From: a virus
IMG/VR virus record: IMGVR_UViG_3300010151_000008
Location: 28,747-92,746 of that record
Direction: 5' to 3' (one strand)
Length of the DNA stretch: 64,000 nucleotides
Shown in pieces: positions 1,342 to 22,800 of the stretch. Below the pieces are notes generated by a model. That model did no database searches. It was not told where the DNA came from and saw nothing but the letters and a program-made list of their open reading frames with translations. Numbering within the stretch: position 1 is the stretch's first letter; each line of letters opens with the position of its first letter. A program made the position numbers and the translations under genes.

Positions 1342-2556
1342 GTGGCCAAGAAGAAAAAAAGTCGTATCAATCAGATGCGTTATGGGGAGATGAATTTTTT
1401 AGGGTCTGCCTATGGTAAATCAACTTTTGACCCAAGCCGCGTAGATATTATAAGTGTTTTACAGGGAAGCAACACCGATTATTATACTGCCAATGTAATC
1501 GCCGGGAAGCGACGTTGGAATGCTATCGTACTGAGATCCACTCAACAAACGCATGCTACAGTTTCTTCAGAATTCCAGAGATCCTATACCGTTTTTGAGC
1601 GGGGAAATGAAGATGGCGAATTTGTACATTTTACATATAAGATTTATATAGCTGAGCTAGACGGTTTTAAGAAAATCCCTGAAAAGTTCTCGTCTAATTC
1701 AGAGGACGCCGGCCTGGTAAACTTATGCCGAGACGCGCTAGCGCCCCTAGGTCAATCATATGGCAAGATAGATTATGGTACGCCCGTCGAGGTGGTCTTT
1801 GCCGACCAAGAAAAGTTAAGACACCCAACAATTGTAGATGTCCACTGGAATCGAAGGATTTCATTGCAGAGCGGAGTGCAGCCCCTGTGGACCACGTCAG
1901 GCCCCCGAGTGACGGTAGCATCCCCCCACGAGGGCGCCCTACCAGAGGATACCGGACCCCCCATTCCCGGTCGCGCAGGTCAGGTTCGGAACGGAAAGGC
2001 CTTCTACGACGACCTCGGCCGTGCTGGAATAGAGTGTGAGGCGTTGCGCCATGGAATTTTGGTTAACGTTAAAAATGAGTCAAGATTTGATCCTAGCGTC
2101 CCGGGTGACTCCATTCAGCGCTTGGGCGCCCCAGGAAAGCCGGGAGGTATAAAAACAGATTACCCGGGCAACCCCGACGCACCATGGCCAAAACTACCCA
2201 CAAAACTTTATGCTTCCTACGGCCTGTTTCAAATGAACATCGGCCGATCCGACGCCCTGGGCTGGCAGATGTTAGAATATTACAATTTGACCGATGCTGA
2301 CAACGACGCCAAATTGGATATTTTGACCGGCGAAAAGGGATATGATAAGCAAATAGAATTTATGGTTCATAAGCTAGAGACAAATTATCCTTCGGTCCTC
2401 GATTGTTCTAGGTATAAAACTTCACAGCAATATCACGATTTCTGGCTTGAGCAGATCGAAAATCCCTCTAAGACTGAGGCCATCGGTCACCGCAACAGAC
2501 GTAAAGGACTCTTTAAAAGAACCCTTAGAGGACTCGGTTTTGAACCGATCGAATAA
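1342..2556 (+). CDS. gp5-like OB-fold protein with C-terminal phage tail lysozyme-like domain (paralogue 1)
   Basis: Shared N-domain ending GTPVEVVFADQEKLRHPTIVDV; C-domain GILVNVKNESRFDP...YGLFQ...QIEFM...ENP. Confidence 0.65.
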   Translation: MAKKKKSRINQMRYGEMNFLGSAYGKSTFDPSRVDIISVLQGSNTDYYTANVIAGKRRWNAIVLRSTQQTHATVSSEFQRSYTVFERGNEDGEFVHFTYKIYIAELDGFKKIPEKFSSNSEDAGLVNLCRDALAPLGQSYGKIDYGTPVEVVFADQEKLRHPTIVDVHWNRRISLQSGVQPLWTTSGPRVTVASPHEGALPEDTGPPIPGRAGQVRNGKAFYDDLGRAGIECEALRHGILVNVKNESRFDPSVPGDSIQRLGAPGKPGGIKTDYPGNPDAPWPKLPTKLYASYGLFQMNIGRSDALGWQMLEYYNLTDADNDAKLDILTGEKGYDKQIEFMVHKLETNYPSVLDCSRYKTSQQYHDFWLEQIENPSKTEAIGHRNRRKGLFKRTLRGLGFEPIE

Positions 2557-2558
2557 CA

Positions 2559-3755
2559 ATGTCTACTAAAAAAACAGCTCTGAAAGATATCCGCCATGGC
2601 GAAATGAATGCTTTAGAAGCACCTTCAACGCAGCCTAGATTTGATCCCTCCCGTGCGCAGGTTGTTGACGTAATGAGAAACAACATATCAAACCATTATA
2701 CGGCCAACACCATCAAGGGCAAAAGACGATGGAACGCGATTGTTCTTAAGAGCACACAGCAAAAGTATGCGCACGTTGCGTCTGAATTTCAAAGAACCTA
2801 TACGTCCTACGAGAGGGGCAATAGTGATGGTGAATTTACACACTTTACATATAAAATATTTATAGCAGAGCTTGATAGCTTTAAGAAGCTCCCTGAAGAC
2901 TTTAGGAATAGCGGGCCCAGCGCTGGCTTACTTAATTTATGCCGAGATGCCATATCTCCTTTGGGGAAGAGTTGGGGCAAGATAGATTATGGTACCCCGG
3001 TCGAAGTTGTATTTGAAGACCAGGAGAGACTCCGTACTCCAATTATTACAGACGTACATTCTAATCGACGCATTGCTCTTAAGGGTGAAAAAAGCGCACA
3101 AGGACTTTTCCTTACGTCTCCGCGGATCGCGCGCGAATCAGCCGGAGGATCTGCAACTGTTGGTAGCCGTACGGTAACAGACTGCAACGAAACTGATTTT
3201 GGAGCTTTAAAGAATGTTGATACGTGGCCAAAAAGATGGCGCTCAAAGTGGCGTGCAATGGAAAAGGCTTCCCGAGCCACCCGAATGGATACGGCCTATA
3301 ATTATTTTATAAACAAGGATTATAGTGCCGCGGCTAGCGCAGGTATAGTGGGTGGTTTGATACAAGAGTCATCAGTTAGCCCGGACGCTTGCAATAAGAC
3401 CGATAAAGATTATTGCGTGGCATACGGTATTGCGCAGTGGACCTCTGAGCGCCAAAAGAGATTGAAAGAAAAATATCCTAATACCTACAATACACTAAAT
3501 TCTCAACTAGACTGGTTATACTACGAGCTATCCCAAGGGAGGGAACAAAAAGCCGGCAGGCTGTTGTCTGCTGCCACCACGTTAGGAGAGGCTGTATATG
3601 GGGCTGCCAATTTTGAGAGATTTAGTGGCTATAAGAGCGGTCAACAAGGAATTTATACGAACTGTCCTGATTTTGGAAGAGGGCACGAATGGGGCGGCCG
3701 CGCCTATTATTCGGTTGGGGTTTACGAACGACACAATAGTTCCGCGGGAGTTTAA
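2559..3755 (+). CDS. gp5-like OB-fold protein with C-terminal phage tail lysozyme (Phage_lysozyme2-like) domain (paralogue 2)
   Basis: Same N-domain; AGIVGGLIQESSVSPDA...AYGIAQWTSERQKRL...QLDWLYYEL...FER. Confidence 0.75.
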   Translation: MSTKKTALKDIRHGEMNALEAPSTQPRFDPSRAQVVDVMRNNISNHYTANTIKGKRRWNAIVLKSTQQKYAHVASEFQRTYTSYERGNSDGEFTHFTYKIFIAELDSFKKLPEDFRNSGPSAGLLNLCRDAISPLGKSWGKIDYGTPVEVVFEDQERLRTPIITDVHSNRRIALKGEKSAQGLFLTSPRIARESAGGSATVGSRTVTDCNETDFGALKNVDTWPKRWRSKWRAMEKASRATRMDTAYNYFINKDYSAAASAGIVGGLIQESSVSPDACNKTDKDYCVAYGIAQWTSERQKRLKEKYPNTYNTLNSQLDWLYYELSQGREQKAGRLLSAATTLGEAVYGAANFERFSGYKSGQQGIYTNCPDFGRGHEWGGRAYYSVGVYERHNSSAGV

Positions 3756-3815
3756 ATAGGTAATGTCCATCAAAAAGACAGTGGCCACGATGGTGTGGCG
3801 GAGGTACACAAGCTA

Positions 3816-5231
3816 ATGGTTATCAAGCTAGATAAGATTACTCAGATGCGTTATGGCCAGATGAATGAGCTGGTTGACCCCATCGCTCAACGACGATTTG
3901 ATCCGAGCCGAGTGGAGATGGTTAGTGCACTCCGCTCTAACAATATTGATCGCTACGTGGCAGATGTTATAGAGGGAAAGGAACGCTGGAACGCGATTGT
4001 TTTGTCGAGCACGCCACAGAATTATGCACACGTGGCGTCTGAGTTTCAACGAACATATTCTGCTTTTGAAAGACAAGACGGGGAATTTACACACCACACT
4101 TATAAAATTTTTATAGCTGAGCTAGATTCCTTTAAAAAGTTGCCCGACAAGTTTTCTCGTAGCGACAATCCGGATGCAGGACTGCTTAACTTATGTCGGA
4201 CTGCTATCGCGCCTCTTGGCCAAGGGTGGGGCAAGATAGACCACGGAACCCCGGTGGAGGTGGTTTTTGAAGATCAGGAAAGACTAAGAAGTCCAATAAT
4301 TGTAGACGTACACTGGAACAGGAGAATGCCTTTAGAGGCGGGTAAGACGGCGACGTGGTCTGCAGCCGCCCCCCGTGTAACGGTGCCCACTAACGATAAT
4401 TTAAAACAAGCGCCCCCACCGGTGATCGAAGGCTGCGACAACTATTTTATACCATCAAGAGCTGGAGCGAACAAGTCGAGGGTCTTGGCCCTCGGGGCCT
4501 CTTTTGCGTCGGGCAAGCAAACTTGGGCTGGCCATGAGAGATTAAATCGCAAACCTAGTGGAAATTTAGATCTGGACAGGGTGGCAAAGGGGAGTATGCT
4601 ATTGGCCGGAGGGAAGAAATCAATACTTGCTCATCTGCAGGCAAACGTCAATTCGGGATGTATAAAGGCAGAAGACTATGACTCAGTAATAATATTTGGT
4701 GGCGCTAACGGAATGACGGACAGAAAAGAAAATCAATGGGAGATGGGTCTTAAAAAACTTTTAACATACGTACGAGATGAGATGGGGATTCAATACAGAT
4801 ATGTTGTAACCCTCCATGGCTGGTATGGCTGGAGAGACACGAGGAGAAAACTGGCCGATAAGGACAGCGGACTCCCTGATGACCCGAGCACACCAGATGT
4901 TGATGAATCAAAGGAGGAAGTTTGGGCGAGCGGCTGGAAAGAACCTAAAAGAAAAAAAGTAGCGGAGTGGACACTGAAGTATAACAACGACATCATCGCA
5001 GCCGAGGGTGACCTCATTACTGGCGTCTTAAGGTGGAGCAAGGACGCGACCGCCACTAACGAGACTGGAAGCGAAGACATAGGCGAGATTATTCCAATAG
5101 GAGAACCAGGAGGACCTCGCGACTGGTTCCGAAAACCATGGGCCAGCAGCGATGGCTTACATCCCAGTGAGGCAGGCCACAAGGAAATTGCGCGCCGTCT
5201 TCGCGCGATGGGGATCCCAGGTCTAAAGTGA
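3816..5231 (+). CDS. gp5-like OB-fold protein with C-terminal SGNH/GDSL hydrolase domain (paralogue 3)
   Basis: Same N-domain; LGASFA (block I), IFGGANG (block III), DGLHPS (block V); ATG 3816 with GGAGG at 3800-3804 (track start 3795). Confidence 0.7.
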   Translation: MVIKLDKITQMRYGQMNELVDPIAQRRFDPSRVEMVSALRSNNIDRYVADVIEGKERWNAIVLSSTPQNYAHVASEFQRTYSAFERQDGEFTHHTYKIFIAELDSFKKLPDKFSRSDNPDAGLLNLCRTAIAPLGQGWGKIDHGTPVEVVFEDQERLRSPIIVDVHWNRRMPLEAGKTATWSAAAPRVTVPTNDNLKQAPPPVIEGCDNYFIPSRAGANKSRVLALGASFASGKQTWAGHERLNRKPSGNLDLDRVAKGSMLLAGGKKSILAHLQANVNSGCIKAEDYDSVIIFGGANGMTDRKENQWEMGLKKLLTYVRDEMGIQYRYVVTLHGWYGWRDTRRKLADKDSGLPDDPSTPDVDESKEEVWASGWKEPKRKKVAEWTLKYNNDIIAAEGDLITGVLRWSKDATATNETGSEDIGEIIPIGEPGGPRDWFRKPWASSDGLHPSEAGHKEIARRLRAMGIPGLK

Positions 5232-5334
5232 TAGAAGAAGAGCAGATGATGACCTCGCGTTAAAAGTTCAACAAGAAGATAATTATATATGATGCCAACG
5301 TTAAAAGAATATTATAGACAGAAAGAGGATAGAA

Positions 5335-6651
5335 ATGGCCGACGACCCCACTAGAACATCAGCCGAGATAGCACAATCTCTAGCTTATTATGACCCTACT
5401 TCGGGCCCCCCGATTATTCCCCCCGATCCATCTTCTCCCGATGGTGAGATTCTTTATGGCGAACTGGGAGATGAGCGTAGAGAAAGTTATAATAACTACG
5501 CCATGGATCTCGATCAATATGATCGGCAGCTGGAACAGTACGAGGAATATTTAACCTCTCAGCAAGATCCTGGTTCTGCTAATCCTGCGATGTCACCCGG
5601 GGCGATTACCGCCGCAGCCGGTGCGCTTGGTCTGCCCGACCCTCCAGGCCTCCCCAGTTCGGGCCCCCCCGCCCCCGGCGCGTCGTCCTTGGGGCCCGTG
5701 CAACAAAAACCAGCTGTAGATTTGGGAGACCCCCTTGAGGCCGAGTCATTTGAGAAGATGTCTTTGCCGGATCAGATTGCTTTTTCGGGTATTGGAGGTT
5801 CCAAGCGCCGCGGCGTAGACGTCCCCAAATTTATTAAGACGCCTGCAGAAAAAGTTTTAGACAATGGAAATGCTTTTATTGTTTTGGGGGTCGACCGAAG
5901 TGGTAATCCGTTTGAGGGCTATGGTGGACTGGGAAACACTCATTGTGCGGCGATTGATATTGTTGCCGGCCGCATGGGCGCCCGCGCTAGAAGCAGAGAT
6001 GATAGCAAACCTTTTCCGAAGCCGGTGTGGACCAACGTTGGTTTTATTGCCGACGCTGCGCGCGTATATATTTCTCAAAAGTCAAATGTGGATGCATATT
6101 TTGGCCTGGCAGCCGGCACAGTAGGGAATACATCATATGAATCGCCTCGGTCCACTGTCGCTCTCAAAGCCGACACTATTCGAATCATTGGCCGAGAAGG
6201 GATCAAGCTGGTGACCAATACGGATACTCAAAATTCTCAAGGCGGTGTTGTACATGGCTCTCCCGGTATTGACTTGATAGCAAATAACAATGATGAGGAC
6301 ATGCAGCCGCTTGTGAAGGGTAACAATTTGATAGAGGCACTTAAAGAAATATTAAAACTAATTGACGATCTTCGCGACCTATTTAATAACTTTGTTAGCT
6401 ATCAAAAAGATCTGAATCGAACGTTAATGACGCATAGCCACTATTCTCCATTTTACGGAGCGGCTACGAGCCCGGATCCACAAGTGATTCGACAGGCTAC
6501 CCAATTTTTGATCGATACTGTTAGAAACGTAGAACTGGGCGCCCAGAACCACATGATGAATTCAGTTGGAATTTCAATGAATTATTTAGAACTTCCTCTG
6601 CCAGGAAAAGACAGCACTTACATAAATAGTACCAACAACCACACGAATTAA
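5335..6651 (+). CDS. Baseplate central spike protein (gp5 C-terminal/gpV-like)
   Basis: Pro/Ser-rich N-terminus, short beta-strand repeats (IVLGVDR, IDIVAGR, LKADTIRIIGREGIKLV), QPLVKGNNL, HxH motif THSH near the C-terminus; lies upstream of gp25/gp6. Confidence 0.6.
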   Translation: MADDPTRTSAEIAQSLAYYDPTSGPPIIPPDPSSPDGEILYGELGDERRESYNNYAMDLDQYDRQLEQYEEYLTSQQDPGSANPAMSPGAITAAAGALGLPDPPGLPSSGPPAPGASSLGPVQQKPAVDLGDPLEAESFEKMSLPDQIAFSGIGGSKRRGVDVPKFIKTPAEKVLDNGNAFIVLGVDRSGNPFEGYGGLGNTHCAAIDIVAGRMGARARSRDDSKPFPKPVWTNVGFIADAARVYISQKSNVDAYFGLAAGTVGNTSYESPRSTVALKADTIRIIGREGIKLVTNTDTQNSQGGVVHGSPGIDLIANNNDEDMQPLVKGNNLIEALKEILKLIDDLRDLFNNFVSYQKDLNRTLMTHSHYSPFYGAATSPDPQVIRQATQFLIDTVRNVELGAQNHMMNSVGISMNYLELPLPGKDSTYINSTNNHTN

Positions 6652-6655
6652 TATT

Positions 6656-9600
6656 ATGGCACGCACACCCAAGATAATAAGCAAATGGACGAGCAAAGAA
6701 ACTGGTGTTGCTTATACGCAGTTTAATAAATCAAAAGTAGCAGTACAGACACAGTATACCACAGCAGATGAAATTGAACAAAACACTGAGGCGATTCTTG
6801 AACTGGGCGCCCTTGCTCTTATGCGCTATTATTTCCCCGGCTCTTGGTATCAGGTAGCTGCAGGGGTCCAGGGTGACACATATGGAAGTCTACTTTTTAG
6901 TAATTTATTAGACAAGCTTACGGTCTCGGCTACCGATTTTAATAGCCGGCCTAAGATGGGGCTTCGTGTTTTGGTGGCGTGCTCTATTGATTTGACAGAT
7001 GAGGAAGAGACTGCCGAGATAATTCCTCCCGAGAGTGGCCCGCCAGCTGATTTAGAGTTAGCATTGGATTATTATCTTTCTACTGGGTCGACTGATATCA
7101 AAAAAGTTTCGAGTACCGGCCGATCTATGACATTTTCAGCGGACACCCTCAACGAAAACCTGAAATTGATTGGCGCCGCTTTTACTAAATATCATAAACA
7201 ACATCGTTTTTTTAATGGGCAGATTAAGCCTTCAATAAATTTTTTAAAGGAATTTGATCTTATATCAAGTTCAATTCATGCCATTCTGCGTCTGGCTGCC
7301 CAGAACTATATTGACACAGGTATTCACTCAGGTACAACATTTAAAGTTGATTTTAATGGTGATTATTCTATTGTAAATATAAAAGCCATAACTCCTGAAG
7401 GGCGCTACCTATCTCTTCCTGTGGGGTTGCTGCCGTCTTTGGGCGCCGCAGCGTTGTCTTCAAGACAAACTAATGTTTATCTGGCGTCTTTTAAAGATAT
7501 ATTAATCAAGTTAAGAACTCGGGGCCCGACTCAAGATTCTTATGCCAACTTTATTAATTTTATAAAACAAGTATCCTCCCTCGGCCCGACTAAATACAAA
7601 ATTAATTATTCGGGGCCGTCCCGAACCGCCGATGCCGGCGCTACCGCGGCTGCTACCGCCACCCAAGGAACGGCAGCCGCAACCGGCACTGCTACTGGGG
7701 TGGATCCAGATGGCCCCCCAAACGCAGAACTTGGTCTGACTCCGGAGGAGAAAGAGAAACAAGAAAAGGTTATAACTCCCAAAGAGGCGGCAGAAATTCT
7801 CGAACAACAGATGAAAAAGGTCGACAAGGCCGCCCAAGAGGTCTCTAAAGAAGTTGGCAAGAAGTTGCGCGAGTTACAGGGTACCGAAGGTTTTCAAATA
7901 TTCACGATGATCATCAATCGGATAGGGATTGATTCTCTTGTAAAGGAGGGGCTCCTTTGTATGCTCTTCGGAGTTGATTTTAGTATACCCGATCTTTATT
8001 CTGACATAAGAGATATGCTTTCCGCTGGCGATGGACTTTTTAGTAAGCCAAAGACAGGCGCCCTTGTGGGCTTTGATATTCCTAAAGTGGACATGAAGTG
8101 GGAAATTTTTAAGATTACGGGAAACATTCAGCCGATGATCAAGAAGGCTCTTTTGGATGCCGTCTTCGGCGCAGTACGAGGGATCCTTGAAGCCGTTACA
8201 GAATTAATTCGCGAACAATGTGAAGCTCGCGATACCGGCAATTTTGGCGACATAGACCTTGCTAGCCTATTACAAGATAAGCCGGCCGGCGGTACTGGAC
8301 TACTTGGTGATGGTTCTGGGCCTAATGGTTGTTTTTCTGAATTCGGCTTACCTCCAACGTCAGGGAACAATTTTCTTTCCCAGGTATCTCAAATCTTGAC
8401 CCCGATCGAGGCATGCCAGCTTTTGACGGGGTCAGCCTCGGCCGCTGTTATGTCCGCGGTCCAAAATTTCATTCAAAATTATTCTAGCGCTACAATACAA
8501 AACGCTCTTGGGTCGCCCTCTGAAATAGCCGCCTTCTTTTTATGTATAGGGGACCAACTCGATGTAAACGATCTTTGTCGGGAAGCTGCCGAGCGCGATA
8601 TAATCCCCAACGCAGAGGAAATTTGTATTACAGGTGGGGACATTTTAGATGCTGTGGGTCAACATAATGTTAACACTCTTCTCGATATGCTTAAGGATGG
8701 CATCGCGGTGGAAATGCCAGAGATCAACTTACAGTGCCCCGACTCCGAGAACTATATTCCCAACCCCTTTGTTGATCGATCGATCCCACAGTTAATGAGC
8801 GCTCTAATAGAGTCAATAGCCGCCAGCTTTTATTTCGCGGCCGACGGCACGAAGGCGGTTCTTTTGAGATCGCAGTTGGGACAGAATGCTACAGCAAATG
8901 CTTTGTTAGAGGCTTGCTTAAGCGAGTCAGGTTCAATGCCGGCCTCCGAGGCTCGCGGCGGAGCTGGCGCCACTCCCGGTGATATTATTGCTATGATCAG
9001 TGAGGGCATCCAGGAAGTAGTGTCAACAGACCTTAACGCTGCGTCCGATGCATGCGGTATCACCTTGGGAGAAATATTCCGAGGAACAGACGATCTAGCC
9101 GAGGTATTGGCAACATTTCAAGATGTCATAGAAAACTTTGATTTCTCGGCTTTGGGAGACATGTCCGCACAGTTGGGCTCGAACGCAAGCGATTTGGCCG
9201 CGGCGCAGTTGAGACTCGACTTTCCAGAGGGTTATAAAGAGGATTTCTTAGAATTTATTCCTACGGCTATCAAGACTGAACTCTATAATGGCAACTATTT
9301 GTACAATTTCAACACAGCCTATCAATCTCCAGCTTTTCATGTAGAAGCGGAGGGACCGCCATTCACGTATACGCTCGACGATGGAGACGACGACGGCGAC
9401 GGCACCCCTAACTACGACGACCGCGACGAAGGCGGCACCGGCGAACCGCACGAGAACTACGATATGCACGCTCTGCAGAATGCTGCCGACGCCGCGCAGC
9501 ACGCCGCCATGGCCCGGACTCGATACACGACCACCTTCGCACTCCCAGCTGAGGGATATCAGGCCAATGCAAATGCAGCTCAGATGCAAGAAGAGTTAGA

Positions 9601-12600
9601 AGCCATAGAGGAATGGGAATTCAATCATGGTAACTCTAATATGATAGGACAATCGAGGCACTTTGAAGAGTGGCTGAAGGGAAACCGGCAAGGTGACCTT
9701 TGGTGGGAGGAAGGCCAGCAGGACTGGTGGTCTCCCGAGGGCTATTCGTGGTATCAGTGGTTTAAGCTTTGGGCCGAGCAAAGAATTGAGCGCGATGAGG
9801 AACAAGGGCCTGATTGGTGGATGCGGTCGACCTTAGCCCTCCCGGCTGATACGCGTGGCGCGCTCCCCGGGTTTGGCAATAAACAGCTATTAGGTCCGGG
9901 GTATGGGCCCGAAGATCCGCAGCCGGAGGTGGATGGCTACCAGCAAGGCTGGTGGGATATGTACCGTGCCCCAGAGCGCTGGGCCACAGCGACGCAAGCA
10001 GAAATACGCGCAGACGAGAGAGTGTGGAAAATATATCAAACGCTGTTCTCGCCATGGCTCCGTGCCAATCCAGACGACTCCATTTTGGCCGGCGAATGGG
10101 ACTACGGCGAGGTCTGGTGGATCGCAAATATTCCATTTGAGTATGTCCCCCGACCTCCCGGCCCGGGTGGCGGTGGCCCTCAGCCAATTGCTCACATCGG
10201 GCGGTCTACGATGTTCGGTGCACCCGAAGGGATAGGTGGCCGCTCTGCCGGCTTCTCTGCTGGAACTGGAATAAAATTCCTGTTCCGGAAAGAATATGCG
10301 ATTCAAAAGTATGAGAGCATTCATTTCCCGAGTTTTCAAGAAGTAACAGAAGATAACCAGAATATATTTGTTGCCAGCGCCCCTGTGGCCTTTCGTGGAG
10401 AGATTCCTTTTATAGAGGGGCGTCAGGGACTGCAGACGACTACTGCAACAGAATTGTATGCCGTGAACCAATCCGCGCACGGATCGGTAATTTCTCCAGA
10501 TAGAATCGCAGAACGCGACGCCAATCCAGCGCGCGGCCTTTTTGCTGACATAATCCACTCAGCATTCGCGAAAAATCTGCTAGAACACGGGAATAGTGAC
10601 CTAGCCGCGGCCGCGAGGGTCACAGCCGCCGGCGGCGAATACACCTCCGGCATCTTGGCCGAATTCTATAACAACCTAGAACACCAATATTATTATGCAG
10701 CCATGGCCGGAACTATGAAGCAAATGAGTGCTTACATAGTGAAAAATGGTGCATTTACACTTGATAGAGTACTTAAGATCCTGGTGGTTCCGGAGAGTGC
10801 TAACGATGCTACAGAACAGTTGGGAGATCTACTAGATTTCAAAAAGCTTGTTCGTGAAGTGCAGGATGAATATGTAGATGCTATTTGCTACGACGGTCTT
10901 AGTCAAGACGAGGTTTTGATTAATTCGCTTGTGTACGGAGCTATAGAACTATTTTTACAAGTGCATCTGGTTGAGTTTTATTTACAAAATGTGTTTGTTT
11001 TGTCGGCATTTGATTTAGACGGGCTGTACGAACTAGAATTGGTGATGGCATATATTTCTTCCTCCATACAAAATACGATTGCTACTTTTTTGCAGGGGAT
11101 AAGTGCCTCAGGGGCCCAGTATAATTTGTTTGAAACGAATTTTCAAGATGCGGTAGTGGAGCATGTTAGCAGAAAAATTATACGCGACGGCGGCGCTCCT
11201 ATCGATGGTGAGATTCTGTCATCTTTGGGAATGTCAGAAGGCGATTTGGGAACCTACGAAGCTAGCATTAGATATCTTCTGGCTAAAAGGATGAAGGAAT
11301 CCGCCCCAGCTGTATCTAAAATTATCTCCCAATGTTCACTTGGGTCTGTCGACGAAGTCTTCTTGAAGGCGGGAATTGGCATTTCTAAACCATTTTTGAA
11401 AGGCCTAGGAGCCGATTGGGGACTTAGTTCTACTAGTCGATATCTAGTAGCATCGCCAGGTGATCGGGATCTTGGGTTTACCGAGGAAGATGCTCAAATT
11501 ATTGCCTATGGTGGATTTAGATTTGAGAAAATAATTAGATTCACACCGCATACATCCGGATATTACGGAGGCTCTGAGGAAAATCCAGATGTACACCTAA
11601 GGGTGGACAAGGAGCTGGGAACCATTGCAGGGGGCAATTGGGTAGCTAACGACACCTTTAAGATCGGCTCGGCCTATCACACCGATTCACCAATAACACA
11701 AAACTTTGTTTCATTGGACAAGCTAATTAGAGTTTTAGACGACCCCGCGGTTACGGATAACATGACCATTCTGGGTAATCCAACGTTATATTATCGATTG
11801 GTATATTATGTTCCGATGCAAACTCGATCCGAGTATTCCGCCAACTCCTCCGGCGAAATAATTTTCGCGGACTCGGCAACTAAAAACCAAGAAATAATGG
11901 ACACGATCGAGGCGTACTTCCTCGATGCTCGTGACGGAGATGACGCCATAGTGAGAGACACGCTCGATACCCTTATCAACGACCAAGCTTCATTTGTTCC
12001 GTTCTTGGTGGGCCCCGGCGGAGGGGACGCATCGATGTCGCACGCCGTCGCCGCGCCCGCATCGAGACAGAACATGACGATAGGAATTCCCATTTTAGAA
12101 GTTGAGTCGGGGGTAAATCTACCCAACAGTATGCGTCTTGATACTGATTCGAGCGCTCCCAAGCGGTACTGGGGCGCCCCCACAACGGGTGGATTATCGT
12201 TGATAAGGTCTTTGGCAGAAAAGGATTTCTTAGATGGAGATGTCGAGATCATCATGAATGACGAGGTTGTGAAAGCACTGTTTAATAAGAGTCTGAGCAA
12301 AGATGTTATTCTGTCTACCCTCTTGTTTAATAATTTTTATCTAACAAAATCACACTTTAGGGGAATCGATACGATCTTTAAGTCCTGCAAGGAATCGGTG
12401 GCCGCACTAATGATGCAAATACAGCAAGGCCGCGGCCTCCAGCCAGACGCTGGTGCAGCCGGCATCGCTCAAATACAGAATGCTTTAGCTAATCAAGGTC
12501 AGGGGGGAGGTAGTGACGATCCCAACGTGGCGGCCTATATCATAAAAGCTATAATCCAAACTCCTTTTGATATCCTTAAGGGCTTAGCCGAGATAATGGA

Positions 12601-13090
12601 TCCACATGTTGTTATAACCAAAATGATAAAAGATATAAGTGGTATGGTGATAACACAGTTTATTGAGGTTTTAGAGTCAGCATTTGGCGCCGTCCCGGGC
12701 CTAGCACAGCTTGACATTGATGTGGAGAAACTAGTAGAAGTTCTTTTCTGTACCATGAATGAAGAAATAAAGAAGAACGGGCCCATGTCAAACGCCGCGG
12801 CAGAAATATCAGAGATGTTGTGTCAAGACATCAATCCGTGGCCCACCTTTACGACAAAAGGAATCCAGTTTACTGGGACCATTCCCGGCATGTTTATGGC
12901 CCCTCCGGGCCCTCTGGGAATTTTCTATCTTATATATGGATTACTTAAAAACGAGATTGACAGAGGTATTGACGATGCCTTCGCCGCCCCAGCCGGCGAA
13001 ACAGACGAATTCTGTATTGATGTAGAAGCTGTTGTCGAAGGCGAAGAAGATACTGGCTGCGTACCGTTCACTGCGCAGCGCGACGACTAA
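6656..13090 (+). CDS. Large hypothetical virion protein (2144 aa)
   Basis: Long ORF between spike and gp25; mostly helical, with Cys residues and an acidic/Trp-rich insert. Confidence 0.75.
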   Translation: MARTPKIISKWTSKETGVAYTQFNKSKVAVQTQYTTADEIEQNTEAILELGALALMRYYFPGSWYQVAAGVQGDTYGSLLFSNLLDKLTVSATDFNSRPKMGLRVLVACSIDLTDEEETAEIIPPESGPPADLELALDYYLSTGSTDIKKVSSTGRSMTFSADTLNENLKLIGAAFTKYHKQHRFFNGQIKPSINFLKEFDLISSSIHAILRLAAQNYIDTGIHSGTTFKVDFNGDYSIVNIKAITPEGRYLSLPVGLLPSLGAAALSSRQTNVYLASFKDILIKLRTRGPTQDSYANFINFIKQVSSLGPTKYKINYSGPSRTADAGATAAATATQGTAAATGTATGVDPDGPPNAELGLTPEEKEKQEKVITPKEAAEILEQQMKKVDKAAQEVSKEVGKKLRELQGTEGFQIFTMIINRIGIDSLVKEGLLCMLFGVDFSIPDLYSDIRDMLSAGDGLFSKPKTGALVGFDIPKVDMKWEIFKITGNIQPMIKKALLDAVFGAVRGILEAVTELIREQCEARDTGNFGDIDLASLLQDKPAGGTGLLGDGSGPNGCFSEFGLPPTSGNNFLSQVSQILTPIEACQLLTGSASAAVMSAVQNFIQNYSSATIQNALGSPSEIAAFFLCIGDQLDVNDLCREAAERDIIPNAEEICITGGDILDAVGQHNVNTLLDMLKDGIAVEMPEINLQCPDSENYIPNPFVDRSIPQLMSALIESIAASFYFAADGTKAVLLRSQLGQNATANALLEACLSESGSMPASEARGGAGATPGDIIAMISEGIQEVVSTDLNAASDACGITLGEIFRGTDDLAEVLATFQDVIENFDFSALGDMSAQLGSNASDLAAAQLRLDFPEGYKEDFLEFIPTAIKTELYNGNYLYNFNTAYQSPAFHVEAEGPPFTYTLDDGDDDGDGTPNYDDRDEGGTGEPHENYDMHALQNAADAAQHAAMARTRYTTTFALPAEGYQANANAAQMQEELEAIEEWEFNHGNSNMIGQSRHFEEWLKGNRQGDLWWEEGQQDWWSPEGYSWYQWFKLWAEQRIERDEEQGPDWWMRSTLALPADTRGALPGFGNKQLLGPGYGPEDPQPEVDGYQQGWWDMYRAPERWATATQAEIRADERVWKIYQTLFSPWLRANPDDSILAGEWDYGEVWWIANIPFEYVPRPPGPGGGGPQPIAHIGRSTMFGAPEGIGGRSAGFSAGTGIKFLFRKEYAIQKYESIHFPSFQEVTEDNQNIFVASAPVAFRGEIPFIEGRQGLQTTTATELYAVNQSAHGSVISPDRIAERDANPARGLFADIIHSAFAKNLLEHGNSDLAAAARVTAAGGEYTSGILAEFYNNLEHQYYYAAMAGTMKQMSAYIVKNGAFTLDRVLKILVVPESANDATEQLGDLLDFKKLVREVQDEYVDAICYDGLSQDEVLINSLVYGAIELFLQVHLVEFYLQNVFVLSAFDLDGLYELELVMAYISSSIQNTIATFLQGISASGAQYNLFETNFQDAVVEHVSRKIIRDGGAPIDGEILSSLGMSEGDLGTYEASIRYLLAKRMKESAPAVSKIISQCSLGSVDEVFLKAGIGISKPFLKGLGADWGLSSTSRYLVASPGDRDLGFTEEDAQIIAYGGFRFEKIIRFTPHTSGYYGGSEENPDVHLRVDKELGTIAGGNWVANDTFKIGSAYHTDSPITQNFVSLDKLIRVLDDPAVTDNMTILGNPTLYYRLVYYVPMQTRSEYSANSSGEIIFADSATKNQEIMDTIEAYFLDARDGDDAIVRDTLDTLINDQASFVPFLVGPGGGDASMSHAVAAPASRQNMTIGIPILEVESGVNLPNSMRLDTDSSAPKRYWGAPTTGGLSLIRSLAEKDFLDGDVEIIMNDEVVKALFNKSLSKDVILSTLLFNNFYLTKSHFRGIDTIFKSCKESVAALMMQIQQGRGLQPDAGAAGIAQIQNALANQGQGGGSDDPNVAAYIIKAIIQTPFDILKGLAEIMDPHVVITKMIKDISGMVITQFIEVLESAFGAVPGLAQLDIDVEKLVEVLFCTMNEEIKKNGPMSNAAAEISEMLCQDINPWPTFTTKGIQFTGTIPGMFMAPPGPLGIFYLIYGLLKNEIDRGIDDAFAAPAGETDEFCIDVEAVVEGEEDTGCVPFTAQRDD

Positions 13091-13566: not shown

Positions 13567-15357
13567 ATGCCAAAAAAACTGCAACCGATTAACTACACAA
13601 GTAGAGACTTTGATAGTATCAGGCGTGACTTAGAAAATTACGCTAAGCGCTATTATCCCGATTCGTATCGAGACTTTAATGAAGCCAGTTTTGGCTCTTT
13701 GATGTTGGACACCGTTTCCTATATAGGGGATATTCTTTCCTTTTATATAGATTATCAGACCAATGAAAGCTTTTTAGACAGCGCTATAGAATATAGTAAC
13801 ATAGTACGTCTTGCGAGGCAACTCGGGTTTAAGTTAAACTCCAGCCCCTCGTCTTATGGGGTTCTGACTTTTTATATCAGCGTTCCGGCTTCCACCTCGG
13901 AAGACGGACCAGATTTGGCGTACGCACCCACTCTACAAGCCGGCTCTCAGTTTGGTTCGAGCGGCGGTGGCCTTTTCACCCTTCTTGAAGATATTACTTT
14001 TTCCAACCCCGCTAATCAGATGGTGGCCGGCGTGATAGTTAATGAAGCGCCCGCATCTTATGTTATACGTGCCCAGGGGCGCGCGGTTTCTGGACGGCTA
14101 GCACGAGAAACCAAAATTGTTGGAACCTATGAGCGTTTTAGAAAAGTATTTCTTTCATCTGACCAGGTCGCAGAGATTATATCAGTAACTGATTCCGAGG
14201 GTCATGAGTACGTAGAGGTTAATAATCTCTCTCAGAACGTAGTTTATAAGGCAATTCGGAATACTCAAGCGTTTAGTGATACGGTACCCTCCATACTGAA
14301 AGCGGTGCCGGTCGCCCGCCGATTTACAGTTGAGAGGAGCAAGCGCGCCACTTACTTGCAGTTTGGGTACGGATCTGACTCAGAGCTGCTTGCGGAATCG
14401 ATAGCTGATCCATCTAATGTGGTTTTAAAGCTTCATGGAAAAGATTATATTACTGAAGATGATTTTGATCCAACGAGATTAATAGAAAGTGATAAATTTG
14501 GAATTGCTCCGGCTGATACCACATTAACGATCTCCTACAGAGTTAATACAACTCGCGATGTTAATGCGGCGGTGGACACTGTTGTACAGGTCTTATCCCC
14601 GCAGATAAAATTTTCAAACCAGGGCGCCTTGAATTCCACTACCAGACGAGAGGTGGCTGCGAGCCTTGAGGTAACCAACGAAAACCTAATTACAGGGGAT
14701 ATATCTTTGCCATCCTCTGATGAAATCCGCCAACGGGTAATTTCTCATTATTCGGCACAAAACCGCGCGGTAACAGCACAGGATTATCAGGCTGTCATTT
14801 ATGGCATGCCCGTCTATTTCGGATCTGTAAAACGGTGTTCTGTGGCGAGGGACTTTACGGAGTTTAAAAGAAACGTCAACATGTATGTTATTTCTGAAGA
14901 TACAACGACCGGTCGACTTACCACTACCAACTCCATTATCAAAACCAACCTTAGTACGTGGTTGGCCCAATACAAAATGATAAATGATACACTTGATATA
15001 TTAGATGCCATCATAGTCAACTTTGGCGTGGAGTATCGGCTAATATCAGACTATGACTCAAATAAATATACAGTGCTAAAAAATGCCAATTCTGCCCTAA
15101 CTGCACACTTTTCCAGAACTCGTGATATCGGTGAGCCGGTATATATTACAGATATTTATAAGGTATTGAATGGCGTTAAAGGAGTAGTAGACGTGTTGGA
15201 TGTTCAGATAGTTAGCAAAACGGGCGGCATTTATTCATCGACTGGATACGATTTCGAAGCAAAACTATCTAACGACGGTCGTTATATAGTTGGAGATCCG
15301 TCGGTTATATTTGAGTTGAAATACCCCAATGTAGATATTCAGGGATCAATCACATAA
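13567..15357 (+). CDS. Baseplate wedge subunit, gp6-like (baseplate J-like)
   Basis: YTSRDFDSIR, DFNEAS, NESFLDSA, LQFG, QNRAVTAQDY; follows gp25. Confidence 0.9.
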   Translation: MPKKLQPINYTSRDFDSIRRDLENYAKRYYPDSYRDFNEASFGSLMLDTVSYIGDILSFYIDYQTNESFLDSAIEYSNIVRLARQLGFKLNSSPSSYGVLTFYISVPASTSEDGPDLAYAPTLQAGSQFGSSGGGLFTLLEDITFSNPANQMVAGVIVNEAPASYVIRAQGRAVSGRLARETKIVGTYERFRKVFLSSDQVAEIISVTDSEGHEYVEVNNLSQNVVYKAIRNTQAFSDTVPSILKAVPVARRFTVERSKRATYLQFGYGSDSELLAESIADPSNVVLKLHGKDYITEDDFDPTRLIESDKFGIAPADTTLTISYRVNTTRDVNAAVDTVVQVLSPQIKFSNQGALNSTTRREVAASLEVTNENLITGDISLPSSDEIRQRVISHYSAQNRAVTAQDYQAVIYGMPVYFGSVKRCSVARDFTEFKRNVNMYVISEDTTTGRLTTTNSIIKTNLSTWLAQYKMINDTLDILDAIIVNFGVEYRLISDYDSNKYTVLKNANSALTAHFSRTRDIGEPVYITDIYKVLNGVKGVVDVLDVQIVSKTGGIYSSTGYDFEAKLSNDGRYIVGDPSVIFELKYPNVDIQGSIT

Positions 15358-16818: not shown

Positions 16819-19800
16819 ATGAGCTTAAAGGATACATACAGACGCCAGTTAGAAAATCTTCAAAATATTTCTAACAAGAGCGAAGAGCAAATAGCTGCGG
16901 AAGTAGAGTCTGTAGGGTATCACGAACAGGACATAATCAAAGAAGAGAGGTTTATTCCTCGCACCGATTATTCGAGACCAAGCGCGTTTGCTCGCTACGG
17001 ATCAGCTACCGAGTATTATCAACAGTCTATAAAAAGAGTTTACAGTACATACCCCTACGACGGCTCACTCAAAGAGAGGTTAGAGTGGGAAAATGATTCC
17101 AATTACTTAGATCTATATCTTTTTGAGCAGCGCTATCCTCGCACGAACGGGTACGTAATTTTATCAGCCGACGGTTGGGGCACCCAGACTGCCACGACAG
17201 GCGGCTACGGGATGCCCTCCTCTCAAGAGTACATATCATTTATTGGCGGGCCCAATGTAAATCCGGGAGGAATGAGCCCCATAGCGCTTCAGTTTACTGG
17301 ATCAAACTATTGGGACCCAGATAAAAATAGAGTTTCGAACCTGCAGTTCGATCTGGAAAACAATGGAGCTACGGTTGAGTTTTGGCTCAAAAAAGACAGC
17401 TTTGACGCAAGCTTAACAGAGAAGGAGGTTGTTTTTGACCTCTGGAATAATGAGCTATCTTCTAGCGATTCATACGGCCGTTTTAGATTAGAGTTGTCCT
17501 CTTCCACAACACCTGGAGGCGAGGGGCCGCTCTTACTCACAGTGATGTCTGGTGCAACCGGGTTCCAGTGGGAACCTGTTGTCGTTGGCTCCGCTTTCAC
17601 GACTGCCTCTATAGCAGATGGCAATTGGCACCACTATGCGGTAACTGTAAAATCTGCTAGCGCAGGGGTGCTAACAAAATTCTATGTCGACGGCGCCCTA
17701 CACGCGGAAAATACGCTTGGTGTCGCCGGTATAAATAATATTGGGGGTGCCCTCAAGGGACATATCGGTGCACTAATTATTGGCCCCTCGGGGACCGTGG
17801 GCCCCGGTACGCCCGAAGAATCGGCCTTCGCTTGGACCGGCGCCGGGAAACTCTCCGCATCCATGGATGAGTTCAGGTACTGGAAAACTCAGAGAAGTTC
17901 TAAGGACATAGGAAGATATTGGATATCGCAGGTTGGGGGTGGTACCAACACAGATCCAGCCCCCGATTCGCACGAAACTAACCTAGTGAACACAGATCTT
18001 GGAGTTTACTTTAAGTTCAATGAAGGAATCACCGGGGTCGAATCCGCGGATAGTACCGTCTTGGACTACGCAGGCCGAGTTTCCAATGGCGCTTGGACGG
18101 GCTACGGTGAAAATTCCAGGAATACGGATTCTGCTATAGTAATTTCTAAAGCGGCTGTAAAAGAATTTAAAGATCCTATTATATACTCCTTCCATCCTGA
18201 AGTTGTATCGCTGAAGACACAGCTAGAAGCTACTGGATCCTATCATGATGTTCGCAACAATACGTCCATCTACAATTCTATTCCCGGATGGGTTCAAGAG
18301 GAAGATGACGAGAGTGCTGGAGAACTTAGGAAGTTAACTCAAATATTGGCTAGCTACTTTGATACGTTACAACTTCAGATTGATTCTGTCAATTCACTCA
18401 AAGATGTGGTTTATTACGGAGATAGTCAGAAACCTCTTCCGTTCGCCAACAAATTATTAGAATCTATGGGTCTTATGACTCCTGAAATGTTCCTAGATGC
18501 AGATGTGCTAGAGAAGCTGGCAGATCGCAGCGAGAAGCATCTGTATGAAAAGTCACTTAATGATATTAAGAATACAATCTATCAGAACATTTATAATAAT
18601 CTAACTTATATTTATAAATCCAAAGGAACTGAAAAAGCTTTTCGTAATTTAATTCGCTGCTACGGAATTGACGACGAGCTAATCAAATTAAGCCTATATG
18701 CTAACAACATAGAGTATGAACTTCTAGATAACTCACGAAATGTTGTTACTTCGAAGAGATTCGTCAACTTTAATACAAAAGATAATCTAGGCGCCACCAT
18801 CTACCAGAGTTCGGCTTCTAGTGATGCCAATTCCGTAGCGTTTATAGCCGGTTCTACTAATCTGACTGGTGGTTTTGCTTTTACCACGGAAGTTGATGTG
18901 TTGTTCCCCCGAAAAGCGCCCCCAGGTCAAGAAAACTACATCGATACCAATTTCATAACAGCCTCTGTCTTCGGAATTCACGGTGACGCTTCCGGCAGTG
19001 AAGACACCACATGGGCAACTCCAGATGCGGTAAATTTCCAGGTTTTTGCAGTCCGAGATGAATTAAGATCTCCAAATGTTCGATTTGTGCTGACGGGAAC
19101 AGCCGGGGGCTTCATGCCGCCCACCCTGGTTAGTGATTTATACGAGGATACCTACAACAATACTAAGTGGAACTTGGCTGTACGTATTAAGCCTGAAAAA
19201 TATCCTTACGAAAACTGGATTACTAGTTCGGTGAACGGCGATTATATCGTCGAATTACGAGGTACCAACACTCAAGATGGGGTTGTACTCAATACGTTTA
19301 CGCTCAGCTCTTCGATTTCATCGCCACCGCCGGCGTTCGTTAGCGGCTCCCGGCGCCTCTTCGTCGGCGCCCATCGACAAGACTTTACCGGCTCACTCCT
19401 ACAGCGTTCTGATGTTAAGGTGGGCACCGCGCGCAGCTGGTTAACATATCTAGATAATAAAACTCTTCTAGAACACGCCCAAGACATTCACAACTACGGA
19501 ACACCGAATCCGCAGTGGTACGCGTTTCCATTTCACCCCAGCGCCTCATTCGGAGAAATCCCACAACTTGATACGTTAGTATTAAATTGGAACTTTAATC
19601 AGAATACGGGCTCGAACGCATCTGGCCAGTTCGGGGTAGCCGACTTCTCGTCCGGCTCTACTCAGTTAGCCACATCCCAGTACGATTGGCTCGGCCCTAT
19701 TCTTCTTAATCAACACCCAGGTCGAGGAGACTTCTTTCCGGCGAACTCTATCAAGGCAATAGATAAAGATTATATTACCAACACGAAGCAAAACTTACCC

Positions 19801-22800
19801 GAGAACTTACAGTCCAAGGACATGATTTCGGTTCTTTCACAAGAGGAACAAGAGGCTTTTGGGCGTACAACTAGACCTGTTACATTCTATTTTGCATTTG
19901 AGAAGAGCCCCTATCAGGTTATTTCTGAAGAGATGATAAATTATTTTGCGTCTATGCGGGACATGCACACCCTAATAGGTGAACCAGTTAATCGATATAG
20001 AATAGAATATAAGGCTCTCGGCAAGATGCGTCACGCCTTCTTCTTGAATGTAGAGAACGATAGAATTGATTTTGATAAATTTTATGAGTTTTATAAGTGG
20101 TTCGACAGTTCTCTTTCTTTAATGTTACAACAGCTTGTTCCGATTTCAGCCGACGTGGCCGGAAACATCCGAACCATTATTGAAAGCCATATCTTTGAAA
20201 GAAACAAATATCAATCCAAGTTCCCGACCATAGACACTATGGACGCAGATATAGAGGGATCTTTTAATACGATTTTGAATGCTTCTCCCGGCTGGCGCTA
20301 TAATCACCACCCTATTGATGGAGCGGAGAATAAAAACGCCCACTGGTGGAAGACGAGAGCTAGCCGAGAAAAAACCAAGCTTCGCACTGGAAATTACGAA
20401 CTAGACTGGAGAAGGCAGAGAATCTTTGAGGATAGTGATTATGAATATGAACGAGAAATAAAGGTTCCTTATAGATTTGAAGCACGTGCTGGAATACAAC
20501 AGCTATCTCCGCCTCATATTATACATAGCGGCCCTAATTATCACCCCAACAAGAAGTACAATTACGTATTTACAGCCACACGGCCTGCAGGCCCTCTCGT
20601 AGAGGGAACAAATCTGCCGGCCAACATTATGCTCGCATTCGATGAGGATGTAGAACGGTTTGTGGATGTGGTGGATGATTTAGAGTTAACCCCTAAGCGC
20701 CGCATCGGGTGGGGGATCAACGCTAGAATCAACAAGGACTTGTCTGGCAGCGCTACTTACGAATTTGCGAAGGGAAGCCTGCTGGCGCCGTTTAGTTTGT
20801 ACAGTAGCTCCGTTACGACGGGTTATAACAAGCAGGTTGTGGAGAAGTTCACACCCGGCGTAATGATTACCAATTTACATCATGATGTATATGGTGTGAC
20901 TCACGAAGTCCCGCTCCAGGGCCCCTTCCCCGAAACGTATGTTGGCGGCCGAGAACATCGCCATGTTCCTATTAACAAATTCGATTCCTCCAAAACGGGA
21001 CCAAACAATCTAGATTCTCCTGCCGACCGGCCCGAAGGGTTTAAGATCTTGTTAGGCAGCTGCGACGGAATCACTACCACCTCCGGCGCCTTAGGTATCG
21101 TAGATCCTCAGTATCCAGATCCAGATTCGCCAGCAGTTTCTCCGCCTTATCTCTTCGACCGACCTAAGGGCAATATGTCACGTAATGTGGGTACCAAGCG
21201 TCCAGTTAATATACGCAACATTCGGAAGAACTCCCCGGGGAACTATAGCCAGAACTACGATGTTGTGTCGACCAATGCACGATCATCAAATGATCTCTTC
21301 TTTAGAAAGCAGACATTCGATTTCTCTCTTTATCCTCAAAGCCCATACCCTCGGCTGCCGATTGTAGATCGTCACGCAGTACAAAACATCAGAGTTAGAA
21401 ACACAAAAGCCATCTCGATTGACGATAGTCTTAATTATTATGTTTTTACTGCTCCGGCGGCAATGAACACAAATAAGAAAGAAACGTGGTCTTGTTGGCT
21501 GAATTGTACCAATCCCGGTGAGCTTAATTACTTTATATTGGATGTATCTGATCGTTACTTTGTGATCAATGCCGATAACACCTTCACTTTTGCCGCTTAT
21601 TGGACGGGGCCTGTTGATGGGATTTGGCAGACTGATGCGGCGATTACAACCGGCAACGAGTGGGTGCATGTGGCTATAACCTACGATGGTAATTCCAGTA
21701 CAAACCATCCTGTCGTCTATATTAATGGCGAAGCGGTAGCAATAACCCGAACATCCGCGGAGCCAACTGGCGATTTAGAACCCTACTTCGGCGGTATCGG
21801 CATCGGCTATGCCGGCGCCCATGCTTTTGAGGGCTATATATCTGATCTGGCATTTTATAATACTAACTTGCTTGCCGATGAAATTAAGGCGATTTATGGC
21901 AATTCAACGTTAGACCTGATTAATTATGGTCCACCCCGCGTTGCATCCAACCTTATAATGTGGTGGAGAATGGGCGACGGCCCGGGCGATACGGTTGGCA
22001 CCATCATCGACCAGATGGGCACTGTAAATTTGGCTGCCGGAGGTTCTCCTTCTATCGTTAATATAAGCGCTGGCGATTGTTTGGTTACCGCCAACGAAAA
22101 CAACTTCGCTCTGCCTGACAGATCTGGCAAGAACTCTAACCAAACCGTTTTTGTAAATCGTTTTGCCGGCTCGGGCTATGAGGTGATGTCGAGAGGCTAT
22201 ATGGATCCAGCTCATGAAGAGAAGTCTGTATATAACGTTTTGCCGTATCACAACTTATCGATTCTAAACTATGGTTTTCCTGAATCAGCATCAGCAGACC
22301 CCTCCATCGCCACCGCAATAGTGGTTGTAGATCAGATAGGCAAGAACAGAGGAAGAAACCAACGGCTTACTTTACACTGTGGCCAGTTTGGTCACGATGC
22401 GGCATATGGAACAATTCCCGCGGACACCTATGTTACTGTTCCTTCATACCAGAAAACAAACCGAAACCCCCGGTCTCGGATAAAGCAGCTAGCCGACGGC
22501 TCTTATGTGACAGGGGTGGTGTACGATAACGGATGGGTAACCCACCCAATTCCGCGTTCGGCGCGGCAGTATTCTTGGATTACGGCTAGCCTTTCTCCGG
22601 ATGTTGGCACCGAGCTGTTTGGCTATTCGGCCCTAAGCGGCGGATTTGCTCAGAGTTTGCCTTTAATTAGCGCAAGCCAGTTTGGATCTGTCCATTGGGC
22701 CTCGGGGTCGACAGTCCTCCCTAGAACCTTGGGGTATGATCAAAACATCGTGGGCCAAGGCGCCGTACTCTTCGGCGCCCCAGTCACCGCATCTGACTTT

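Follow-up and report, generated by a model that had tools for sequence, protein, structure and literature searches.

The cell-puncturing protein gp5 of bacteriophage T4 has a split counterpart, well supported by the evidence laid out below, in a 64,000-nucleotide stretch of viral DNA (hereafter the window) that spans positions 28,747 to 92,746 of the IMG/VR record IMGVR_UViG_3300010151_000008 and forms the second part of this 92.7-kb record (CheckV completeness ~51%). Three tandem genes between positions 1342 and 5231 encode carriers, each made of an N-terminal OB docking domain followed by a different enzyme-like cargo, and the gene that comes next (5335-6651) encodes a separate needle, predicted to be trimeric. 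In T4, gp5 is cleaved to gp5*, which holds the OB and lysozyme domains, and gp5C, which trimerises gp5; the released gp5* is monomeric (PMC3004832). The carriers have the layout of gp5*, OB domain first and wall enzyme second, with the needle gene next to them, and the split of gp5 proposed in an initial annotation of this DNA, made from its letters alone, is well supported. The reading that we favour, and take to be somewhat probable, goes further: the locus would be a modular version of gp5, the adaptors of which fill the three sites of the spike as a mixture.

Docking domains, cargos and needle

All four genes lie on the plus strand. The first carrier (P0001, 1342-2556, 404 amino acids (aa), GTG start) joins an OB docking domain at 1342-1899 to a lysozyme-like or lytic-transglycosylase-like cargo at ~1900-2553. 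In the second (P0002, 2559-3755, 398 aa) docking occupies 2559-3113 and a Phage_lysozyme2 domain residues 243-362 (nucleotides 3285-3644), while the third (P0003, 3795-5231, 478 aa) combines a docking domain at 3795-4370 with an SGNH/GDSL esterase at ~4371-5228; its homologue P0007 suggests that its true start is likely the ATG at 3816. The N-domains (~185 aa) are 58-66% identical as proteins and 65-78% identical as DNA. Searched against its own record, the domain matched exactly three copies (E 6e-126, 3.5e-75 and 1.7e-74), and the last two values, those of the other two copies, put the similarity far beyond chance. Homology among the carriers stops in the alignment near residue 190, right after PR(V/I). 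The open reading frames (ORFs) are as the initial annotation described them, its ~180-aa common domain is confirmed up to that residue, and the motifs that it quoted are all aligned: RWNAIVL, SEFQR, YKI(F/Y)IAELD, LNLCR, GKID(Y/H)GTPVEVVF.DQE.LR.P.I.DV and PR(V/I).

Beyond this point the three proteins go separate ways. P0002 is a member of Phage_lysozyme2 (PF18013; E 2.1e-19, 70.5 bits against a gathering cut-off of 28.2), with a weak match to the lysozyme domain of phi29 gp13 (3csr, E 0.036). P0001 stays below the threshold of the same family (22.4 bits against 28.2, E 1.5e-4), but its ES and GLFQ motifs are those of lysozyme-like transglycosylases; P0003 stays below that of GDSL (PF00657; 21.3 bits against 23.6, E 3.4e-4) and has the Ser (GASF), Gly/Asn (GGANG) and Asp-x-x-His (DGLHP) blocks. 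Related carriers match GDSL at 3.4e-9, and a homologous carrier of another locus, L037, passes PF13472 (37.9 against 32.9). The divergence into two lysozyme-like domains and one SGNH domain, as first annotated, is therefore retained, above the Pfam cut-off for P0002 and supported by motifs for the other two. Single contigs of two other marine studies bridge all three carrier genes in identical order, which argues that the tandem array is not an assembly artefact. In these strain variants the docking domains are ~96-97% identical and the cargo parts have diverged, the segments 2057-2350, 3199-3270 and 3352-3471 being replaced or strongly changed; cargo turnover appears to be faster than slot turnover.

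No family of Pfam, PHROGs or NCBIfam holds the N-domain. Profile searches with the N-domain and needle families against all PDB sequences returned nothing below E 0.2, alignment of the N-domain profile to T4 gp5 and P2 gpV by hhalign gave nothing significant, a six-frame search of the record and of five relatives for Gp5_OB (PF06714) was without matches up to E 10, and Phage_base_V (PF04717) had no match in the record or in two complete relatives. What can be said of the fold comes from a predicted model: for residues 1-187 of P0002, AlphaFold2, supplied with an alignment of 68 N-domains from related loci, gave a mean predicted local distance difference test (pLDDT) of 79.4 and a predicted template modelling score of 0.72 (a model of the whole protein from 11 sequences, at pLDDT 36, was unusable). 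In the model of residues 1-187 a helix spans residues 35-47, and there are five strands, the final two formed by GTPVEVVF and LRTPIITD; the whole is a five-strand OB barrel of the gp5 type. Foldseek against the PDB found no match at E <= 1e-3, with weak OB matches only. The longest solved one is the OB domain of T4 gp5, and the others include the spikes VgrG1, PVC, AFP, Mu, R2 pyocin, P2 gpV and A-1(L) gp25. The OB fold foreseen in the initial annotation is thus upheld by the model and by these matches, weak as they are.

Generic OB proteins score equal to spike OB folds, so that the comparison with the PDB speaks for the fold and not for the family. The family is approached through several observations. 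In a viral model library, the first rows belong to the unnamed family of the domain itself, and those below are for the most part T4-like "baseplate hub + tail lysozyme" proteins; the ESM Atlas points to a Gp5_OB cluster. The lysozyme domain of T4 gp5 aligns behind the OB domain in the carriers of two related loci (L074 and L016), and residues 161-292 of T4 gp5 align to residues 254-407 of the former (E 6e-7 in a small database). Downstream of carriers and needle, at 13567-15357, stands a gp6-like wedge gene, and gene 5 of T4 likewise precedes gp6. Together, these structural rows, the ESM Atlas, the T4-type lysozyme in relatives and the gp6-like gene lead us to read the N-domain as a very divergent gp5-type adaptor OB. 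Searches with PF06714 and PF04717 brought up no other candidate for a spike OB in the record or in the two complete relatives.

The needle (P0004, 5335-6651, plus strand, 438 aa) comprises a Pro-rich N-extension (5335-5706) and a conserved core (5707-6648). Marine metagenomes supply it with more than 674 homologues of ~328 aa, a family without counterpart in Pfam, PHROGs or NCBIfam, and hhalign of the needle profile against T4 gp5 and P2 gpV returned nothing significant. When its core (residues 125-438) was modelled as three copies, the interface score ipSAE was 0.90, where the best of three controls had 0.03; the pLDDT was 88 (no lower than 87 for the partner), and the runs agreed in 83% or more of their contacts. 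Among proteins of solved structure, 20 of 30 pairs and 1 of 23 single chains attain the mark used for this score, counts that hold only roughly for three copies and a custom alignment. The separate trimeric spike that had been ascribed to the gene at 5335 is in this way supported as a predicted homotrimer.

Its architecture was read from the list of predicted contacts. Strands pair between chains at core residues ~148-205; contacts of a residue with itself along the axis then recur every 3-4 residues from 208 to 240 (208, 215 and 219 among them), as in a coiled coil, just past which lies the HxH motif at core residues 243-245, and a helix (252-292) packs outside. We infer a trimer that would end in a helical hairpin bearing an HxH site. 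This motif (His367-Ser-His369, 6433-6441, plus strand), ~70 residues before the C-terminus and at the predicted trimer interface, is invariant in 78 aligned homologues. Its surroundings resemble LHTHKHPG of P2 gpV, in a match that is not significant, and it probably binds a metal. Of the beta spike with HxH originally suggested, the motif has stood; a beta-helix of the gp5C type is not borne out by the predicted contacts, which indicate a beta segment with intertwined chains and, after it, a hairpin of coiled-coil form. The 124-aa Pro-rich N-extension is lineage-specific, missing from most homologues, and probably disordered. The needles of the other loci with three carriers are also longer than usual (372, 348 and 351 aa), which may reflect shared ancestry rather than function.

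Copy number and cargo exchange among related loci

By blastn and tblastn, the region, the N-domain and the needle are all without a match among 50,697 GenBank phages, and profile searches of the phages immuto, Mel-JY01 and RM378 found neither family. Relatives come from IMG/VR, where a hidden Markov model (HMM) of the N-domain was run over 80 loci fetched by means of the needle, out of roughly 480 with a needle gene; a metagenome scan contributed one further small locus only. One or more carriers lie immediately upstream of the needle in nearly all loci that include upstream sequence (about 60 marine loci), within a conserved order of genes: a sigma-like protein (~230 aa), a helical protein (~100 aa), the carrier or carriers, the needle and a giant protein. 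This adjacency is strict even where carriers are only 13-25% identical.

Copy numbers were counted in non-duplicate loci with at least 4.5 kb upstream. A single carrier is the norm (31 loci), two are present in four (L031, L033, L037 and L040) and three in three others (L001, L069 and L079), to which the window adds a fourth case; seven loci had none detected, four of these being recovered by iteration and the others giving weak matches. No counted locus exceeds three. Among the one-carrier cases are two relatives, of 184 and 194 kb, whose completeness is rated at 100%; each has exactly one carrier, with no other detectable spike OB. The idea that three paralogues match a three-fold hub finds no rule in the family to rest on, most relatives having one copy and some two. 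Two loci have cargo-less stand-alone proteins of 192-195 aa directly upstream of the needle (L052:6363-6947 and L083:6357-6932); they resemble the adaptor in a bare form, although their match to the HMM is weak.

Cargo varies greatly but is nearly always a wall enzyme: in 69 carriers the families are VanY (16), Amidase_2 (10), M23 (7), Muramidase, Phage_lysozyme2 and SGNH (5 each), SLT (4), T4-type Phage_lysozyme (PF00959) and GH19 (3 each), and a GDPD and a PTP phosphatase are also found. Within every multi-copy locus the cargos of the paralogues differ. As examples with three carriers, the window has lysozyme-like, Phage_lysozyme2 and SGNH cargos, L001 lysozyme-like, unknown and SGNH, L069 SGNH, none and lysozyme-like, and L079 Amidase_2, DUF2272 and M15; with two carriers, L031 has M23 and Amidase_2, L040 M23 and unknown, and both L033 and L037 SGNH and unknown. 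Other genomes load their enzymes in series on one carrier, as do L028 (Muramidase, SGNH, M15) and L011 (Muramidase, SGNH). SGNH is never the sole cargo of a locus. The comparison of copy number and C-terminal domains in relatives, which had been called for at the outset, bears out the variety of cargos, but not three copies as the usual state. Cargos are swappable across related loci in the manner of the C-terminal effectors of evolved VgrGs, as had been surmised.

Some carriers depart from the common form. The Muramidase/SGNH/M15 carrier of L024 (468-2964) appears to be broken into two ORFs within the muramidase domain, probably by a frameshift or a sequencing error; the closely related L028 and L030 have a single gene of 843-868 aa. 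The carriers of L053, L055, L056 and L061 are very long (1213-1422 aa): they begin with the OB domain, and ~1000 unassigned residues separate it from a single recognisable enzyme close to the C-terminus.

Docking domains and cargos have followed different courses, as is best seen by setting the window beside L001. Cargos 1 and 3 are positional orthologues (54% identity over 208 aa and 55% over 240 aa), and cargo 2 has been replaced. The N-domains of the two loci are just 38-52% identical, which is below the 63-66% found within the window, and they group by genome, with a support of 95/97 for the window clade; the same grouping is found in L069, L079 and L040. Approximately unbiased (AU) tests reject each positional pairing of N-domains (p 8e-5, 0.007 and 8e-5). 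Clustering by genome and the AU tests together indicate that the docking domains of one genome are kept alike: judged from these alignments and trees, they evolve in concert while cargos stay positional orthologues. Long identical tracts of DNA between the paralogues of the window are absent, so that gene conversion has not been recent. Such likeness would follow from a need of the paralogues to fit one common set of partner surfaces.

Occupancy of the three-fold site

In the scheme that we favour, the three tandem genes would encode gp5*-like adaptors, each with an N-terminal helix, an OB barrel and a C-terminal peptidoglycan enzyme. In T4, the OB domain of gp5 is an adaptor between gp27 and the beta-helix (PMC3004832); here the barrel would dock at the three-fold centre of the baseplate, between hub and needle. 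Two of the cargos would act as lysozymes or lytic transglycosylases, and the SGNH esterase would probably unmask the substrate or assist the glycosidases, for example by removing O-acetyl groups. The needle would be a separate, obligately trimeric counterpart of gp5C, with an intertwined beta segment, an axial coiled coil and HxH. The three adaptor sites of each needle and hub would be filled singly from a pool of co-expressed paralogues. This one-by-one filling is suggested by T4, where trimerisation comes from gp5C and the released gp5* is monomeric. Enzymes would then be mixed on most virions: were the paralogues equal in supply and affinity, 89% would have at least two kinds and 22% all three. 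Models of gp27 (PF09096) and PAAR (PF05488) matched nothing in the phage record, itself ~51% complete.

The closest known parallel is the (gp27-gp5*-gp5C)3 device of T4 (PDB 1K28/1WTH; PMC3004832), where an OB adaptor is likewise followed by a wall enzyme, the needle is trimeric (here by prediction), and the spike genes lie upstream of a gp6-like wedge gene. After cleavage at Ser351, gp5* and gp5C are separate chains in T4 too (PMC3004832), and a few relatives of the window carriers bear the T4-type lysozyme family. However, the split is here genetic and not proteolytic, and the adaptor comes in one to three paralogues with freely exchanged cargos. The window proteins match neither Gp5_OB nor Gp5_C of Pfam; the carriers end in an enzyme, without a C-terminal beta-helix in the same chain, the trimeric partner being a separate gene; and the end of this needle appears to be a hairpin of coiled coil with HxH, not a long PAAR-capped beta-helix.

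Evolved VgrGs, such as VgrG1 and VgrG3 of V. cholerae, also form sets of paralogues with a common spike module and varied C-terminal effectors, peptidoglycan hydrolases among them, and VgrG spikes of the type VI secretion system can form heterotrimers, the three-fold site being open to different paralogues (PMC8668125). Yet a single VgrG chain runs from a gp27-like domain through an OB domain and a beta-helix to the effector, whereas a carrier of the window is made of helix, OB and enzyme only and belongs to a phage, not to a secretion system. The spikes with an HxH iron site (P2 gpV, phi92 gp138, R2 pyocin) share with the needle an invariant HxH and, as predicted in its case, a trimeric axial form with this motif near the tip; unlike it, they hold their own OB and beta-helix. 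The needle has no match to Phage_base_V and continues for ~70 residues past HxH, apparently folding back as outer helices. Finally, several wall-degrading activities on a tail tip are found in phi29 gp13 (lysozyme and M23), on the lysozyme domain of which the cargo family of P0002 was founded, and in the cyanophage A-1(L), whose hub protein gp15 has lysozyme, endoglucanase and peptidase (PMC10966104), three enzymes in one chain as in L028. In the window, by contrast, the enzymes are spread over three carriers with a common docking domain, and not placed in series on one hub or knob protein.

A mixed filling of the three sites is more likely than an ordered 1:1:1 heterotrimer, which the family does not require. 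A bolder proposal, which we regard as unlikely, is that the paralogues co-assemble on one needle as a regular heteromeric warhead with three enzymes, an effector-loading system within virions that would parallel the arrays of evolved VgrGs. Were it true, phages would gain their first example of a heteromeric central spike complex, and the homogenisation of docking domains within a genome would be a signature of selection for co-assembly.

Other ways of using three carriers have to be weighed. All the sites of a virion might be filled by one and the same paralogue, through cooperative or co-translational assembly, each burst then releasing three kinds of particles, every kind with its own enzyme, as a form of bet-hedging against hosts that differ in wall chemistry. 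One-copy relatives do indicate that a single type of carrier suffices for a working tail tip, and strain variants keep their docking domains while cargo segments differ, as parts linked to host range would. Nevertheless we find such a mixed population rather unlikely: the SGNH domain, never alone at a locus and elsewhere fused to muramidase in one chain, would make an esterase-only particle probably a poor penetrator, the carrier genes are tightly packed and co-oriented, and the T4 precedent is a monomeric gp5*. An ordered heterotrimer, the main idea of the initial annotation, with specialised paralogues taking exactly one place each at the three-fold site to make a defined three-enzyme device, would account for the occurrence of three copies, and never more, in at least three separate lineages (the window with L001, L069 and L079), as well as for the complementary cargos, and heterotrimeric VgrG spikes have been reported in type VI secretion (PMC8668125). 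It is quite unlikely in view of the two-copy loci L031, L033, L037 and L040, of the single copy as the norm, of the copy in L069 that lacks a recognisable cargo, and of docking domains that are homogenised within a genome instead of having diverged into distinct interfaces; few multi-copy loci, moreover, were sampled. Very improbable, lastly, is that the products are not tail-tip parts at all, the OB domain being a general-purpose module by which soluble enzymes, for lysis or accessory tasks, bind or are targeted, and its adjacency to the needle mere co-regulation: structural scores that fail to separate spike from generic OB folds, cargo families that are those of endolysins and the want of a family link for the OB domain in profile searches would fit, but not the strict adjacency to the needle across loci with carriers 13-25% identical, the position within a late structural block upstream of the gp6-like gene, a helix and OB layout that resembles central spikes such as A-1(L) gp25, or two complete genomes without another detectable spike OB.

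Spikes of the gp5 or VgrG kind that bear enzymes are already known. New here are the split at the level of genes, two unnamed families (adaptor and needle), the loading of enzymes in parallel as against in series, and a slot that evolves in concert. We found no account in the literature of phages with gp5-like adaptors in several copies, and to our knowledge the central spikes of contractile tails have been treated as homotrimers with at most one enzyme. A large uncultured marine clade would have turned gp5 into a kit of two parts, a constant needle and an OB adaptor slot that accepts almost any peptidoglycan hydrolase. As the slot is multiplied in parallel by paralogues or loaded serially in multi-domain carriers, these viruses may provide a natural experiment in the tuning of wall penetration to host chemistry, an example of a docking domain that evolves in concert while cargos swap, and a link between phage spikes and the effector logic of type VI secretion. 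As a scaffold, adaptor and needle could also be used to fit lysins of choice to tail tips or tailocins.

Source virus and neighbouring genes

The source virus is, from its gene content, a distant T4-like myophage: the record encodes a T4-type terminase, a gp20-type portal, a gp23-type capsid protein and the gp6-like wedge gene, and the closest capsids in culture, with 42-48% identity, are those of Flavobacterium phage immuto, Microcystis phage Mel-JY01 and Rhodothermus phage RM378. Public sequencing runs that contain large shares of the stretch are labelled as marine or hydrothermal-vent metagenomes, with no RNA runs among those listed. Every large ORF of the window is on the plus strand. The T4-type late promoter TATAAATA is not enriched there (8 sites against 3.9 expected).

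Ahead of the carriers, the gene at 332-1063 encodes a weakly sigma-like protein of 243 aa (phrog_234, late sigma, E 4e-4; TIGR02937, E 1e-3) and overlaps that at 1042-1338, which encodes a helical protein of 98 aa with an acidic tail. The latter is 90% identical to its counterpart in L001, where adjacent proteins are at ~50%. The two genes stand before the carriers in all related loci, and their products may be a late-transcription pair similar to gp55 and gp33. On either side of the gp6-like wedge gene lies a giant ORF: that at 6656-13090 (2144 aa) is without a Pfam match, and that at 16819-26364 (3181 aa) has Laminin_G_3 domains as its only Pfam matches; L001 also has a giant ORF after its needle. 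Farther along, the 1051-aa product of 38975-42130 joins a calcineurin-like phosphoesterase of the SbcD/gp47 kind, at its N-terminus, to an SMC/SbcC (gp46-like) ATPase, and appears to be a fused nuclease of the Mre11-Rad50 type.

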